In this document: positions 15,001 through 21,000 of the stretch, in pieces
Numbering within the stretch: position 1 is the first letter of the stretch
Layout of the letters: every line of letters begins with the position of its first letter
Assembly (NCBI GenBank): GCA_963849325.1
Contig: CAWKHF010000006.1
Span: forward strand, 160,001-224,000
Origin: an uncultured Planctomycetota bacterium
Lineage (GTDB): Bacteria > Planctomycetota > Planctomycetia > Gemmatales > Gemmataceae
DNA: 64,000 nucleotides
Reading direction: 5' to 3'
Made by a program: the position numbers

Positions 15001-18000
15001 AGGGAGAGATCGAAGCCGCCATCGGCGAAGGGATCAGCCGCTTCGAGCAGGAATACATGGGTCGCGGCCCCAAGCACGTTCACGCCTACCTACTCGGCGA
15101 CCTCCTCGTGGTCCGCCTCCTGGGCGTTTTGACCGTGGCCGAACAGCAGCTGGTCAAGTCGCTTCCGGCCGAGAAGGGCCGCGACCTGCTCAAGCAAGTG
15201 CGCACCCATCTGGTCGAGACGGCGCGTCCGGTCATGGAGGAAATGGTCCAGGAGATCACCGGCATCAAGGTGGTGAGCCTGCACCACGACATCAGCACCC
15301 TCACCGGCGAGGAGGTCATGCTCTTCACGCTGGCCGAGTCGCCTCTGTTCCGTGAGGCAAGGAAAAAGTAGAGACCCCTCCAGCGAAGGGCGAAGCGGTG
15401 CGGGATGCCGCAGGGGAGATGCCGGCGACGGCGGGTAGAATGACCAAAGGGGAACTTCTTCGCGGAGGATGGTATGATCCTGTCGGACTTTCTCACGCAC
15501 CATGCGGACGGCGAGATTACGTTGACCGGCCATCGCATCGGTCTGTACACCGTGGTGCGTCTGTACCGCGAGGGGCAGTCCGCCGAGCAGATCGCCGAGG
15601 AACTGGAGTCGCTGGGGTTGGCCCTGGTGTACAAAACGCTGGCCTTCTACCTGGAGAATCAGGCGGAAGTGGATGTTTACGTGGACGCTTATCGGGCAGA
15701 ACTGGACCGGCAGGCGCAGCTTCATCGAAAAGGCCCTGGCATTGAGGAATTGCGGCGACGTTGGCAAGAAAAGGGGTTGGGGACGCCGCCGTGATGCCTG
15801 TCCTTCGCTACGTCCTGGATGAGAACTTACGCGGCATTCTCTGGCAGGCCATCCAACAACACAACGGTCTCGGCGCCTTCCCCCTCGATGCTGTCCGTGT
15901 CGGCGATCCGCCGGACCTGCCTCTGGGGACGGTGGATCCGAACATTCTTCTGTGGGCCGAATGGGAGGGACGAATCTTCGTGTCTCTGGACAAAACGACA
16001 TTGCCGGGCCACCTGGCCCAGCATCTCCAGCAGGGCCGTCATTCGCCGGGGATTCTCATCGTGACGCCATCCAGCACGCTCGCGGAAGTCCTTGAATATC
16101 TCGTGTACGCCGCCTATGCCGGCAAGCCCATCGATTACGCGGACGGCATCACGTTCATCCCCTGAACTTCGCCACGGCCCGCAACGGAGGACGCCATGAT
16201 CCTGCCGGACTTTCTCACGCGCCACGCGGACAATGACATTCGCCTGACCGGCCATCGCATCGGCTTGTACACCGTGGTGCGCCTGTACCGCGAAGGGCAG
16301 TCCGCCGAGCAGATCGCCGAGGAGCTGCCGTCGCTGGGGTTGGCCCTGGTGTACAAAACGCTGGCCTTCTACCTGGAGAATCAGGCGGAAGTGGATGTCT
16401 ACATGGATACGTATCGCGCCGAACTGGATCGGCAGGAGGCGCTGTACGACAATAGTCCGGTAGCGCTCAAGATGCGGCGTCTCCGGGAATTGCTCCAGCA
16501 AGCCGATGAACGGTTCGGTTCCGAGCCGGGCTGGGCGACCGTTCCAATCCCGGAGAAGATTCGACGAATGGAGGAAGCAACCTCTCCTCCGGCGGTGTAA
16601 CGATGCCCTTACGCTTCGTGCTGGATGAACATCTGCGCGGCGGTGGCCTGTGGCGGATTATCCAGCAACACAACGCGCAGGGGCTGAACCTTCTCGATGC
16701 CGTCCGCGTGGGCGACCCGCTCGATCTCCCTCTGGGAACAACGGATCCGGATGTGTTGATCTGGGCGGAGCGCGAAGGCCGAATCCTCCTGTCGCGCGAT
16801 TTCAGCAGCTTGCCGGGACACCTCGTCCAGCATCTTCGGACGGGACGCCATGCGCCGGGGATCTTTCTCCTTCGCCCGCGTGCCTCGTTGTCTGCCGTGC
16901 TAGGAGACCTTGTCGTGACGGCTCACGCCGGCGATGCGGCTGACTTTCAGGACGCCATCCGCGTCATCCCGTTCTAATCGACCCCGGCGGTCCAGGATGG
17001 GATGCTCCGGCGATGGCGGGTACAATGAGGAGCCATTTTCGAGGAGCCTACGATGGTCCTGCCGGACTTTCTCACGCGCCACGCGGACAATGACATTCGC
17101 CTGACCGGCCATCGCATCGGCTTGTACACCGTGGTGCGTCTGTACCGCGAAGGGCAGTCCGCCGAGCAGATCGCCGAGGAGCTGCCGTCGCTGGGACTGG
17201 CCCTAGTGTACAAAACGCTGGCTTTCTACCTGGAGAATCAGGCGGAAGTGGATGTTTATATGGACGCCTATCGCGCCGAGTTGGACCGGCAGGAGGCGGC
17301 TTATGTGCCGGGACCGGGGGCGCTCAAACTCCGGCGTCTCCTGGAGCTAGTCCGTGAAGCGGACTCGCGGTATGGCTCTGACCCGGCCTGGTCGGCCCTC
17401 GACATCATTGAGAAATTGCACCGACTTGGGGAGATCCCTCCCACGAATCCGGTGTGACGATGCCGTTGTGCTTGGAGTTGCGCGGAAACCGGCGAAGGGC
17501 ATCGCGAATTGTAACAACCCGCCGCGACAGAAAACTTTCGCCTTCGCCAATCGTCTTCCTTTTAGGAGGTCACGACGAACACGGCCCCAACGCTTGCGGG
17601 CGTTGACTGTCCCGAAGGAGGTACAACGTTATGCGTCGTCTTCTCTTCCGCGTCGCCGGGCTGTGCCTGGCCCCGCTGACCGGGTTGGCCCTGGTCCACG
17701 CCTCCGAGCTGGACGGCAAACCCGCCGTCCGGCCTGTCAAACCCGCCACGCCTGCCACGGTATTCGTCCCGGACAAGGAGCTGACCTGCGGCTCGCACGG
17801 CACGCGCGTCGAGTTCGTCGCCACGCCCAGCAAGGCCGCGGCCATCGCCAAGAAAGAGCAGAAGCTCGTCTTCGTGCTGCACGTCTCCGGCAACTTTGAA
17901 GACCCGCGCTTCACCTGAAACAACGCCGAGGCGCTCCGTGTGAACGCCCTGGCCAATGCCGAAGTCGGCAAGTACCTCAACGAATACTTCGTCTCCTCCT

Positions 18001-21000
18001 TCCAGAAGGTCGCCACCTTCCGCATCGTCGGCGGTCAGAAACAGGGCGGCAACGTCGCCAGCTACTTCTGCGCTCCCGATGGCCGCGTCCTGCACGTCGT
18101 CGCCGGGCCGGTCAACGCCGACACCCTGCTGCGCGAAGCGAAGTGGGTCGTCGAGACCACCAAGAAGGCGATGGACGACGCCAAGGGCGACGGCCTGAAG
18201 TTCAAGGCGTTCTTCCGCAAGGCCCATGCCGAGCGCCTCAAGGACGAGCACGGCCTGACCGTCGAGCCGGTCACGTTCGATCCGCCGGCCGATGCGGACG
18301 AGAATGGCGCCTTGACCTACCGCGACCCGAGCGGCCGGCCGCTGGCGCCGAAGCTGCCGCCGCCGCCGATCGATGGGCCGGACGTTACCATTCGGCCGGC
18401 GCTGGCGCTGCAAAAAGCCGAGGCCAAGATGGCCGGCGCGCGTGCTCTGCTCGATCGCCGGGGCCGTCGCTGGGTGCTCGGCAACCAGGGCCGCGTTCAC
18501 GTGCTTCTGGCCGCCCACGCCATGAACAAGATCGAGACGATCTACGCCACCATCTTCGAGGGCATCCTCGGCGAGAAGATCTCGACCAGGCCCGTCGAGG
18601 TCGTCACGCCCTTCCCGTGGCTCAACCACCGCGGTAAGGGCGGGTAAGGATCCGTCCCAGAATTCCTTCCTGTTTCGCCGCGACGCGCAGCGGAGCGCGG
18701 GAGACTCCCGCGCTCCGCTGCGCGTCGCGGCGAAACAGGAAGTCGCCGTTCGGCTTTCGTCTTGTCCCAAGCTCCCCCATCTGCTAGACCTTACGGCGTT
18801 ACGACGACGCCTCAATTCAACCAAGGGACGGAAGCGCGCAAGACGTATGATCCCCATTGACCTGAGCGGGAAAACGGCCCTCGTCACCGGCGTGGGCGAC
18901 AACGAGAGCTTCGCCTGGTTCATCGCCAAGGCGCTGCAGGCGGCCGGCGCGCGCCTGGTGTTCGCCGTCCATCCGCGCATGATCCGCATCGTCGAGGGCT
19001 TCCTCAGCGGCGAAGCGCCCGACGACCTGGCCAGCCGTGCCCTGCCCTACGGCGGCGGCAGTCTGAAGGTCGAGAAGCTGCTGCCCTGCGACGTCGGCTA
19101 CGACACTCTCGCCGACGTGCCCGAGGCGACGCGCAACGACCGCCGATACAAGCGCGTCGAGGAGCAGCACGGCGATTACTCCATCGAAGGATTGATGAAG
19201 GCGGTCAAGGAATCGCACGGCGGCATCGACATGCTCGTCCACAGCGTCGCCTTTGCGCCGGAGATCAAGAGCAAGCTGATCGACACGACGCGAGCGGGCT
19301 ACTGGACGGCGATCAGCATCAGTGCTTACTCGCTGATCGGCCTGGTGCGGGCGGCGCTGCCGTTGATGGAGAATCGTCCGAGTGGAGCGTCGGTGGTGGG
19401 TCTGACGTACCTGGGCGGCGCACGGGTGGTGCCGCACTACGGCGGCGGCATGTCCACGGCCAAGGCGGCGCTGGAGATCGACGCCAAGCAGCTGGCCCAC
19501 AACGTCGGCGACAAGGGCATCCGCATCAATCTCATCTCGGCCGGACCCTACGCCTCGCGCACCGCCAAGGGCATCGGCGACATCCAGCAAATGATCGATT
19601 ACGCCGCCCAGCGTTCGCCGCTGCCGCGCGGCGTCACGCCGGAAGAGGTGGCCAACACCACCGTCTTCTTGTGCAGTCCGCTGGCCTCGGGCATCACCGG
19701 ACACGTCCTCTATGTCGATTGCGGCTACAACGTGATGGGCGTGTGAGCGGCCGCTTGCGAGCCGAGCCCGCGGCGTAAGCGAGGGTTGCAATCTTCCCTC
19801 GCTTACGCCGCGGGCTCGGAAGTAGAAGAACGGTTGGCGGTTGGCGACCTCAGGGAGCGGAGTTGCCGGCTGTCAGTCGGCCCGCGCCCGCGGCATTGCT
19901 GTTGCGAGAGCTGTTGGCGGTATTGGCCGTGTTGTTCCGCCGATTGTTGGTGATATTGGCCACGTTGCCGCGGCGGGATTTGTTGGTGGTGTTGGCGGTG
20001 TTGGCGGTGTTGGCCGCATTGGCCGCGTTGCTGTGGTGGGAGTTGTTGATGGTGGTCACGACGCGCGTGTGAGAGCTGTTGGTGGTGGTCACGACGCGGG
20101 TGCGCGAGTTGTTGGCGACATTGCGGGTGTTATTCGAGGTATTGGCGACGTTGCTGTGTCGGGTGTTGTTGGCGACGTTGCTGGTGCGGGCGTTGTTCGA
20201 GGTGTTGGCCACGTTGCTGGTACGGGCGTTGTTCGAGGTGTTGGCGACGTTGCTGGTGCGGGCGTTGCTCGGGACGTTGGTCACGTTGACGTACACGGTT
20301 ACCGGGTAGGCGTTGGCATAGGGGACGCCGGGGCCGTTGCAGGCCCGGACCTGCGTGCCGACCACGGCCACGATCGCCAGACTCACCAGCAGAGACATCA
20401 GAAACTTACGCATGGGAGGCTCCTCGCCGCAGTGCGGCATCAGGGGTGAGAAGAAGGACTTTTCCGGCTGACCATCGTTTCATCGCGGCCAGCCTGCTCG
20501 ACAGATTCAACGCGATTTCGATCCGAAGCGGACAAAACGCCGCGATTTTTTTCGCCCCGGCGTCTCAGCGAACGTAGAGGGCGATGGGTACGCCGTACTC
20601 GGGTCCGGCGAGGGACTGCGGCGTCGCATGGCGGATCAGAGCCAGTCCGCCCAGCTTGCTCTGCCAGGTGCCGTCGGTCGCCTGGATGGCCGCGTGCGTC
20701 ACGCGGACGATCCGGCCGGATTCGTTGCGCAGGCCGTAGACGACGACTTTCTGCACTCCCGATTGCCGGCGGAAGTCCAGCACCGACATCCGCCGATAGC
20801 CGGCCGAGCGGTACAGCTGATCCATGAATGCCAGCGGCGCGTTGGCCGGCCCCGTTTGCGGGTCGATCCAGCGATTGTGGATGCCCAGGGAGTGGGAGAT
20901 ACAGTTGTAACGGTCGGTCGCGGGGGCCAGCACTTCAAACGCGGAGCCTAGACGCGGGAAGCTCCTCCGATTGCTGGTGTTCTGCAGGCGCTGCCGCTCG

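Follow-up and report, generated by a model that had tools for sequence, protein, structure and literature searches.

An apparently undescribed family of probable thioredoxin-fold selenoproteins in Planctomycetota, truncated in public annotation

The nearest structural counterparts of the family reported here are Thioredoxin_7, Thioredox_DsbH (DUF255) and DsbD-gamma, extracytoplasmic proteins with a CxxC motif whose reactive residue opens helix alpha-1 of the thioredoxin fold. AGR2 and AGR3, from the eukaryotic ER, carry a CxxS motif and thus a single reactive residue. Rdx or SelW-like CxxU proteins (PF10262) are thioredoxin-like in fold as well, and their Sec takes the second CxxC position of the redox motif. 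Bacterial thioredoxin-fold selenoproteins include the VPGUxxT family (NF041382, NF041383), with Sec in the context V-P-G-U, and the Trx7/PDZ selenoprotein (NF041199), which has a PDZ domain; according to the available sections of a 2026 review, computational prediction came first for both (PMC13188914). The same sections give the rules for bacterial SECIS elements as a loop of 3-9 nt, an upper stem of 4-16 bp, a G at loop position 1 or 2, a UGA-to-loop spacing of 16-37 nt and an MFE of -7.5 kcal/mol or lower (PMC13188914).

The locus lies in a 64,000-nucleotide window of a Gemmataceae genome (G000; contig CAWKHF010000006.1, positions 160,001 to 224,000), where a forward-strand frame of 338 codons is interrupted solely by one TGA (Table 1). 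Taken as a stop, this TGA leaves a 95-codon ORF from the ATG, followed in frame by a 235-codon ORF that begins inside a SECIS-like hairpin. The preliminary description had read the TGA as selenocysteine in a signal-peptide protein truncated in public annotation, and the present analysis agrees on each point. The locus is here considered, with high confidence, to be one gene encoding an exported thioredoxin-fold selenoprotein of ~34 kDa, likely a periplasmic single-selenol oxidoreductase. Computation supports the recoded frame, the conservation of the UGA, the pairing of Sec with Cys, the SECIS-like hairpin, the fold and the presence of the Sec machinery; export, redox chemistry and substrate of the 338-residue protein are inferred. 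The N-terminus downstream of the ATG is kept in two orthologues (L008 and L009), and its first 24 residues, with a basic start, a hydrophobic core and V-H-A followed by S-E, were judged by eye to be a probable signal peptide; the AlphaFold2 model has pLDDT below 50 across them.

Table 1. Features of the selenoprotein locus and Sec machinery of G000. Positions count along the window, or along the whole contig where a contig (C6, C12) is named.
Feature	Position	Strand	Remarks
Shine-Dalgarno-like AGGAGG	17616..17621	+	9 nt 5' of ATG 17631; direct reading
Full selenoprotein gene	17631..18647	+	338 codons + stop; U96 = TGA 17916-17918
Predicted Sec-type signal peptide, residues 1-24	17631..17702	+	read by eye from translation
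Thioredoxin-fold domain, residues 53-187 (predicted)	17787..18191	+	AlphaFold2 model, pLDDT 81.2, pTM 0.76
Sec codon UGA, U96	17916..17918	+	N-terminal end of helix alpha-1 in model
SECIS-like hairpin, 29 nt	17925..17953	+	apical loop 17937-17941, C-G-U-G-U; MFE -12.3 kcal/mol
235-aa ORF of public annotation	17940..18647	+	GTG start inside SECIS-like hairpin; stop 18645-18647; cf. P0002
Family-specific C-terminal extension, residues 188-338	18192..18644	+	helices + Pro-rich insert of ~70 residues
Long near-perfect inverted repeat	18660..18745	.	just 3' of stop; sequence reading
tRNA-Sec	C6:239940-240031
selA	C12:1294197-1295291		in three frames in G000
selB wing domain			beside selA
selD	C12:1350909-1351838

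Conservation of the TGA is strict. Matches were found in 24 of 41 genomes (G000 included), giving 62 rows, and each of the 42 rows that span residue 96 has exactly one TGA, as previously claimed for site-covering matches; the codon at the site is never TAA or TAG, and none of the 20 rows without a stop spans the residue. All 32 loci that were read have the TGA inside the same motif, T-U-N-N-A-E-A. The family had been described as spread through Gemmataceae and a sister family, but its range is much wider: TGA occurs in 35 of 36 site-spanning rows of a phylum-level Planctomycetota sample, and of 20 distant Planctomycetota loci fetched, 19 have it in the same alignment column, the exception (L070) having TGC, a Cys codon. 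The family is apparently undescribed and spread through Planctomycetota. Among 20 orthologues, mean pairwise differences at codon positions 1/2/3 were 0.271/0.163/0.520 over codons 56-95 and 0.18/0.146/0.431 over codons 97-136; both sides of the TGA evolve as coding sequence, and codons 56-95 are under purifying selection.

Database homologues numbered 2332 at E<=0.001 among 8000 candidates scored, in keeping with the earlier figure of more than 2,300, nearly all starting past the TGA. Among the matches listed, 118 of 120 homologues are 227-241 aa long and cover 67-70% of the query, and therefore begin after the TGA, while the remaining two (P0004 and P0005) are full-length Cys forms that read straight through the site. 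If the active-site Sec is read from this stop-like codon, public annotation consequently retains only the back two-thirds of the protein. Where the preliminary description knew one full-length homologue with Cys at the site, Cys is now found in seven of 23 other database proteins reaching residue 96 (P0004, P0005, P0170, P0179, P0232, P0251 and P0263); Ser, Ala, Glu, Gly or Asp occupies the site in 13 of the 23, distant homologues of the present protein, which counts against a strict redox role. Within G000, the two paralogues reported earlier (C12:861983-862501 and C6:551149-551740) do bear the TGA and are both frameshifted in the assembly, and two further paralogues were located at C7:287888-288640 and C7:255256-255942. 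In paralogue group 2 the place of the signal peptide is taken by a membrane anchor and a Pro-rich linker, the Pro-rich insert of ~70 residues is lacking, and the motif is C-x-x-U with Cys at -3, the position at which the gene at 17631-18647 has Arg.

The SECIS element missing from the preliminary description is supplied by a candidate hairpin starting 6 nt past the UGA; its 5-nt loop opens 18 nt past the same codon and has G-U at positions 2-3. Loop length, the G at position 2, the 18-nt spacing and the MFE of -12.3 kcal/mol all agree with the rules set out in the available sections of the review (PMC13188914). The stem comprises 6-7 bp with one C.A mismatch in its upper part, where the C12 paralogue has U-A; this mismatch is probably why a simple hairpin filter had passed over the present copy. 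The same hairpin folds in 32 of 32 family loci, at -7.5 kcal/mol or better in 30, with two missing the energy rule. Its geometry is also that of the FdhA gene of G000 (7-bp stem, 5-nt loop likewise starting 18 nt after the UGA); in the Rdx gene of G000, which also has a TGA and a hairpin, the loop is G-U-C and starts at 22 nt. Across the alignment 87.5% of cells pair, against 35-40% with the partner slid. Compensatory change is seen at two pairs, one going from G-C to A-U in four sequences and the other being U-A in 10, C-G in seven and unpaired in 15; the close likeness of the sequences leaves little covariation, five of 11 pairs being invariant and slid controls at +1 and +2 giving similar scores. 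Stem sequences differ in distant subfamilies, in which the loops, judged by eye, mostly open with C-G-U-G. Rfam held no SECIS model matching the locus, RNAalifold on the alignment did not recover the hairpin, and the 106-nt stretch is no more stable than its shuffles (z -0.15; 86 of 200 match or better it). At third codon positions the entropy after the UGA is low, at 0.73-0.76, though not uniquely so (0.71 for codons 124-135). The tRNA-Sec, selA and selB previously named in this genome were found again, together with selD. The split of selA, raised earlier as a caveat, is seen in the G000 assembly; among 40 relatives, 37 have the gene intact in a single frame, so its division into three frames here looks like the product of assembly indels.

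The fold, which the preliminary description had left open, is thioredoxin-like and of the Trx7/DsbH/DsbD-gamma type in the AlphaFold2 model. VIA-align ranked 3f9u_B (Z 12.2, rmsd 2.5, 108 aligned) and 3ira_A (Z 11.6) highest, with 7tkv (Z 10.2), 2ju5 (Z 9.9), 1vrs (Z 9.6) and 2kuc (Z 9.2) among 14 chains at Z >= 8, and Foldseek returned 7tkv (3.4e-4) and 3ira (8.6e-4). The modelled elements run strand 79-87, helix 97-119, strand 120-128, strands 142-147 and 152-158, and helix 163-184, which is the thioredoxin order and places the UGA codon inside the fold, between the first strand and the first helix, U96 coming immediately ahead of helical residues 97-107. Profile alignments with 2kuc and 3ira match U96, weakly (E 0.25 and 0.48), to the first Cys of their CxxC. 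The CxxC dithiol motif is absent, with U-N-N-A in its place and no second Cys, and residues 137-141, ahead of strand 142-147, contain no proline as far as the sequence and the modelled strand ranges indicate. For the C-terminal ~150 residues the best match to a solved fold had Z 4.0, none of 48161 chains reaching Z 5. Given the thioredoxin-like fold, 'new family' is to be understood as a new family within a known superfamily and not as a new fold.

Sequence libraries give little hint of this kinship. As previously stated, the 338-aa protein (P0001) matches nothing of note: no Pfam family at E<=10, one chance-level match to an unrelated peptide model in NCBIfam 20.0, and a best E of 0.58 in a PDB sequence search. 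Among 48 members, PF13899 (Thioredoxin_7) and PF03190 (Thioredox_DsbH) reached at best E 0.11 and 0.16, below the gathering threshold, and the C7 paralogue reached E 0.019 (15.5 bits, cut-off 27 bits); the sequence-level tie to thioredoxin families lies under every curated threshold. The earlier caveat about published lists was addressed with the 119-family selenoprotein table in the available sections of the 2026 review (PMC13188914), in which no family fits, the unvalidated candidates of one groundwater-MAG survey cited there lying outside the comparison.

Set beside the systems introduced above, the family shares with Thioredoxin_7, Thioredox_DsbH and DsbD-gamma its fold, its predicted extracytoplasmic location and a reactive residue opening helix alpha-1; it differs in having U-x-x-A for CxxC, in falling outside these Pfam families and in its own 150-residue C-terminal extension. 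The bacterial thioredoxin-fold selenoproteins are distinct in motif, T-U-N-N standing against V-P-G-U, and in architecture, the new family having no PDZ domain. The distant paralogue at C7:287888-288640 gave weak matches to NF041382, NF041383 and NF041199 at E 4.2e-5, 6.9e-4 and 0.14, its best score of 23.3 bits standing against a cut-off of 275 (cut-offs range from 275 to 350), and the 338-aa protein, one group-2 member and one Cys form gave no match to these models at E<=1. The single-residue CxxS of AGR2 and AGR3 is the nearest analogue of U-x-x-A, and AGR3 (3ph9) is also close in structure (Z 10.1, rmsd 2.8, 111 aligned), but these proteins use Cys and not Sec, lack the C-terminal extension and have no detectable sequence relation to the family. 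The C-x-x-U of group 2 recalls the Rdx and SelW-like proteins, from which the present gene differs in lacking a Cys at -3; PF10262 gave no match to the 338-aa protein, whose profile puts Sec at the first CxxC position, just before the helix, and which is far larger and predicted to be exported.

That the TGA is a plain stop, separating two genes of 95 and 235 aa or marking a decaying pseudogene, with the annotation correct, is very improbable. In its favour, thousands of records carry the 235-aa ORF as annotated by gene callers, the RNA around the codon folds with no unusual stability and selA is broken in the G000 assembly, but a single thioredoxin fold appears to run across the codon, codons 56-95 are under the purifying selection noted above, the Cys forms continue through the site, and the invariable use of TGA (42/42), in the same column even in distant subfamilies, is joined by an intact selA in most relatives (37/40). 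Reading of the UGA by some other route, whether near-cognate insertion of Trp or Cys or a local change of code, is less probable still: the conserved frame would be explained equally well by read-through of a single UGA, yet the genome holds the full Sec machinery, a hairpin of SECIS geometry stands at the right distance and matches that of FdhA, homologues have Cys and not Trp at the site, and the neighbouring gene ends in an ordinary TGA stop (17455-17457).

A more serious but still unlikely alternative accepts the selenoprotein and takes Sec as a ligand instead of a redox nucleophile, binding or carrying a periplasmic metal or chalcogen, perhaps together with conserved Cys and His. Over 48 sequences C147 and His 84, 155, 199 and 290 vary little or not at all and are more widely kept than U96, Cys directly adjoins Sec in paralogue subfamilies, and such a C-U motif is typical of several metal-related selenoproteins in the table of the available review sections (PMC13188914). 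The U-x-x-A motif without a resolving Cys and the Ser or Ala found at the site in some homologues point the same way. Against it, Sec occupies the classic thioredoxin nucleophile position, the nearest folds are disulfide oxidoreductases, and the strand topology of the model would put C147 far from the active site.

The reading as a periplasmic single-selenol oxidoreductase is favoured as most likely because Sec would take the first-Cys place and Ala the second. In the proposed mechanism, UGA codon 96 would be read as selenocysteine when the hairpin 6 nt downstream recruits SelB and tRNA-Sec, and Sec would come to lie at the N-terminus of helix alpha-1, in the place that the nucleophilic first Cys holds in CxxC thioredoxins. 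The single selenol may then attack a disulfide, a sulfenic acid or a peroxide, after which an external thiol may restore it; in paralogue subfamilies a Cys lying 1-3 residues upstream may do so instead. More tentatively, exported thioredoxin-like selenoproteins may have radiated across the whole phylum Planctomycetota, this gene being one branch, with a lone selenol doing the chemistry and no resolving Cys in a fixed place; G000 has at least five copies of the family, and across the family the neighbouring Cys stands at -1, -2 or -3, or is lacking. Cultured Gemmataceae are aerobes. According to the available sections of the 2026 review, selenoproteins are seldom retained in aerobic soil bacteria (PMC13188914). 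If this radiation is real and the Gemmataceae are aerobic, it would give aerobic soil bacteria a large extracytoplasmic selenoproteome that annotation has missed, and may reflect an undescribed kind of periplasmic selenol-based peroxide or sulfenate defence.

The inverted repeat beyond the gene is probably a transcript-end hairpin. It is absent from the list of a simple terminator scan, and its sub-threshold matches to microRNA-precursor models are as expected of a long hairpin.

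The window gene is a real, well-supported selenoprotein gene. A single frame runs through its in-frame TGA to 18647, as the preliminary description had claimed, and translation of this codon as selenocysteine (Sec, U) yields a protein of 338 residues (P0001) with U at position 96. TGA otherwise serves as an ordinary stop in the source genome, as the gene immediately upstream terminates at TGA 17455-17457. In a set of 41 close genomes (the source genome and 40 relatives), the family was matched in 24, giving 62 match rows; all 42 rows covering residue 96 carry exactly one TGA, whereas the 20 stop-free rows are those that do not reach it, so that the earlier statement of one in-frame TGA in every site-covering match holds. 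The context T-U-N-N-A-E-A, followed by L or F and then R, is invariant in the 32 loci read. A profile search of 201 genomes (the source genome and 200 drawn evenly over the phylum) gave matches in 22; by our own count, 36 rows cover the Sec column, of which 35 have TGA (one with an additional TAG) and one does not. When 20 distant loci from this sample were fetched, TGA fell exactly at the Sec column of the family HMM in 19 and was replaced by TGC (Cys) in one. Codons 56-95, upstream of the TGA, are under coding-type evolution, with mean pairwise differences among 20 orthologues of 0.271, 0.163 and 0.520 at codon positions 1, 2 and 3, respectively (0.18, 0.146 and 0.431 for codons 97-136). Among RNA-library contigs placed at 80% likeness from four libraries, two (X15 record 18 and X5 record 25) span the TGA, extending over 31 letters beyond it in both directions, and list no difference at 17916-17918; these contigs come from relatives, may reflect DNA carry-over and have unusable depth, and give at most a weak hint of transcription across the site in such genes. 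The share of sampled words present in a sequencing run never exceeded 0.15, so that no habitat is assigned.

Features of the window and of the source genome (plain coordinates are window positions; C and L prefixes denote contigs and loci read; the window lies on C6)
Feature	Position	Strand	Remarks
134-aa ORF	15761-16165	+	related to 124-aa ORF; before first DUF433 gene; no Pfam match
DUF433 gene, first copy	16196-16600	+	~80% identical to second copy
124-aa ORF	16603-16977	+	starts 2 nt past first DUF433 gene; no Pfam match
DUF433 gene, second copy	17053-17457	+
Shine-Dalgarno-like AGGAGG	17616-17621	+	upstream of ATG 17631
Window gene	17631-18647	+	ATG 17631, stop 18645-18647; in-frame TGA 17916-17918, then GTG 17940 in same frame; signal peptide
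SECIS-like hairpin	17925-17953	+	5-nt loop C-G-U-G-U at 17937-17941, 18 nt past UGA; MFE -12.3
Inverted repeat	18660-18745		long, near-perfect; directly after window-gene stop
196-aa ORF	19850-20440	-	signal-peptide-like start, long repetitive Asn/Thr/Ser-rich body; no Pfam match
Paralogue	C12:861983-862501		membrane anchor, Pro-rich linker, C-x-x-U
Paralogue	C6:551149-551740		TGA present; frameshifted in assembly
Paralogue	C7:287888-288640 (L007:1405-2556)	-	383 residues, distant; Cys immediately before Sec
Paralogue (candidate)	C7:255256-255942 (L043:357-1043)	+	signal peptide; Cys at -2 from in-frame TGA C7:255508
tRNA-Sec	C6:239940-240031		16 kb past window end
selA	C12:1294197-1295291		split over three frames
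Rdx/SelW-like protein	C4:412604-412816	-	C-x-x-U; one in-frame TGA
Formate dehydrogenase alpha subunit (FdhA)	C10:540688-543804	+	one in-frame TGA

The rules for bacterial SECIS elements, as given in a 2026 review (PMC13188914), comprise an apical loop of 3-9 nt, an upper stem of 4-16 bp, a G within the first two positions of the loop, a UGA-to-loop distance of 16-37 nt and an MFE of -7.5 kcal/mol or lower, and the hairpin downstream of the window TGA satisfies them. All 32 family loci fold into this hairpin, 30 of them at -7.5 or better, and 87.5% of hairpin cells in the alignment pair, against 35-40% for partners displaced by 1-3 columns. At one pair, G-C is replaced by A-U in four sequences; another is U-A in 10, C-G in seven and a C.A mismatch in 15, including the window copy, which is probably why the simple hairpin filter behind the preliminary description passed it over. 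Five of the 11 pairs are invariant, two slid controls gave covariation scores similar to the true pairing, and the dip in synonymous variation past the UGA (0.73-0.76 bits) is matched elsewhere in the gene. RNAalifold on 32 sequences returned two tiny helices and not the SECIS-like hairpin, a 106-nt stretch showed no gain in stability over shuffled versions of itself (z -0.15), and an Rfam scan of 17500-18800 gave no SECIS family match. Selenoprotein genes of known families in the same genome were used as controls: FdhA has a 7-bp stem with a 5-nt G-G-U-C-U loop starting 18 nt past the UGA, and the Rdx-like gene a G-U-C loop 22 nt past it. In distant subfamilies stem sequences vary and, by eye, loops mostly start with C-G-U-G about 23 nt past the UGA. 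The family provides a clear SECIS signature across the lineage, a loop starting C-G-U-G 18-23 nt past the UGA, which could serve to scan these genomes for further selenoproteins. A genome-wide scan for UGA, stem and family-type loop was useless as a control in this GC-rich genome, nearly all of its 96 matches lying in random open frames; it uncovered C7:255508, and the stem mismatch kept it from detecting the window copy.

The recoded frame, the SECIS-like element and the Sec machinery are each established by computation. Besides tRNA-Sec, selB and selD were found in the source genome. The caveat that selA is read in three frames was correct for this assembly (14 contigs, completeness 84.69%) and loses its force as an objection, since 37 of the 40 relatives have an intact, single-frame selA. 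Further frameshifts affect two paralogues (L002, L003) and the C7:255256 gene; since other genes are frameshifted too, assembly indels are the likely cause of the split selA. The frameshifts point to the kind of indel error common in long-read assemblies and not to genuine pseudogenes.

The source genome holds at least five copies of the family. The C7:287888 copy gave weak matches, far below threshold, to VPGUxxT thioredoxin-like selenoprotein models, and the other four matched no model. Relatives of the C7:287888 type occur across the phylum, together with another type that likewise has Cys immediately before Sec. The C7:255256 gene is a candidate for a further exported selenoprotein, without a Pfam or NCBIfam match. 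The two codons after its TGA are the same as in the window gene, and a C-G-U-G-C loop on a 6-bp stem lies 18 nt downstream; further on the frame degenerates, an assembly indel being the probable cause.

Among 8000 candidates scored, 2332 database proteins match the window protein at E<=0.001. Of the 120 matches listed, 118 are 227-241 aa long with 67-70% query coverage and therefore begin at the GTG that follows the TGA, confirming that public annotation is shortened there; four of these carry the source name 'hypothetical protein, Gemmataceae bacterium'. The remaining two are full-length proteins that have Cys in the Sec position. One of them, P0005 (589 aa, 75% identical, on a 3.7-kb metagenome contig), bears an N-terminal caspase-like Peptidase_C14 domain, which could reflect either a genuine fusion or the merging of two gene calls. 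An exhaustive search gave 1199 cluster representatives at E<=0.001, and the core HMM matched 251 stored proteins (P0001 included), 227 of which start after the Sec site. Among the other core-HMM matches, which reach the site or span it with a gap, the residue is Cys in seven, Ser in five, Ala in four, Glu in two, and Gly, Asp and Leu in one each (the Leu being a frameshift product), and two have an internal gap. Sec/Cys pairing therefore exists in the family, but the reactive residue has been lost from distant membrane-anchored relatives. Thousands of database entries lack the signal peptide, the first strand and the catalytic residue, which annotation pipelines could put right with the help of a family model.

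P0001 belongs to no Pfam or NCBIfam 20.0 family, as previously stated, and the 119 families in the table of PMC13188914 include none with its motif or with a model matching it. Term searches of the text of this review and of the BSepDB paper found no mention of Planctomycetes. Literature searches combining selenoproteins with Gemmata, Gemmataceae, Planctomycetes or Planctomycetota, with supplements and the candidate lists of one groundwater-MAG survey outside their scope, found only PMC4807772, whose consulted passages describe Sec machinery for Gemmata obscuriglobus and, for other planctomycetes, selenoproteins. Within the thioredoxin-like superfamily the family seems not to have been described before, and it extends the bacterial selenoproteome into a phylum absent from the text of both the review and the database paper.

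The fold, left open in the preliminary description, is now modelled as a thioredoxin fold. An AlphaFold2 model from the 48-row alignment (pLDDT 81.2, pTM 0.76) comprises strand 79-87, U96, helix 97-107, strand 120-128, strands 142-147 and 152-158, and helix 163-184. Foldseek gave three matches at E<=0.001, two 7tkv chains (Thioredox_DsbH protein) and 3ira (DUF255), followed by DsbD-gamma, DsbH and AGR3; VIA-align against 48161 chains gave 3f9u_B (Z 12.2, rmsd 2.5, 108 aligned), 3ira_A (11.6), 2lst (11.3) and 7tkv_B (10.2), all spanning residues 53-187. The two top hits of a PDB-sequence profile search are thioredoxin-fold proteins at non-significant E-values (0.25 and 0.48), with U aligned to the first Cys of CxxC. 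Computation thus places the Sec of the predicted fold immediately before helix alpha-1, profile-aligned with the CxxC nucleophile. A separate model of the last 157 residues (pLDDT 73.9) had no structural match (best Z 4.0).

The protein would be exported, given its signal peptide (recognized by eye) and the membrane-anchored paralogues, and would perform redox chemistry with a single selenol, which an external thiol or, in paralogues, a nearby upstream Cys would resolve. Alternatively, Sec may act as a ligand, perhaps jointly with the widely conserved C147, H84, H155, H199 and H290. In the 48-sequence family alignment (A3), G159, W172 and H199 are invariant and the other four of these residues at least 90% conserved, homologues without Sec or Cys at 96 included; these columns hint at another conserved site besides position 96, perhaps one for a metal. 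Under the redox reading, an active-site Sec without a partner Cys, together with the Cys and non-redox variants, forms a natural series in which the retention of Sec over Cys can be studied.

A FabI-like gene downstream of the window gene recurs in only three other loci among those read (L008, L009, L026) and thus provides no functional hint. The inverted repeat after the window gene was not picked up by a simple terminator scan; it gave sub-threshold matches to several microRNA-precursor models on both strands, the sole matches of the Rfam scan. Immediately upstream of the window gene lie tandemly duplicated small-gene pairs (15761-17457); the second DUF433 copy has no partner ORF before the selenoprotein gene, and the layout looks like that of toxin-antitoxin pairs.
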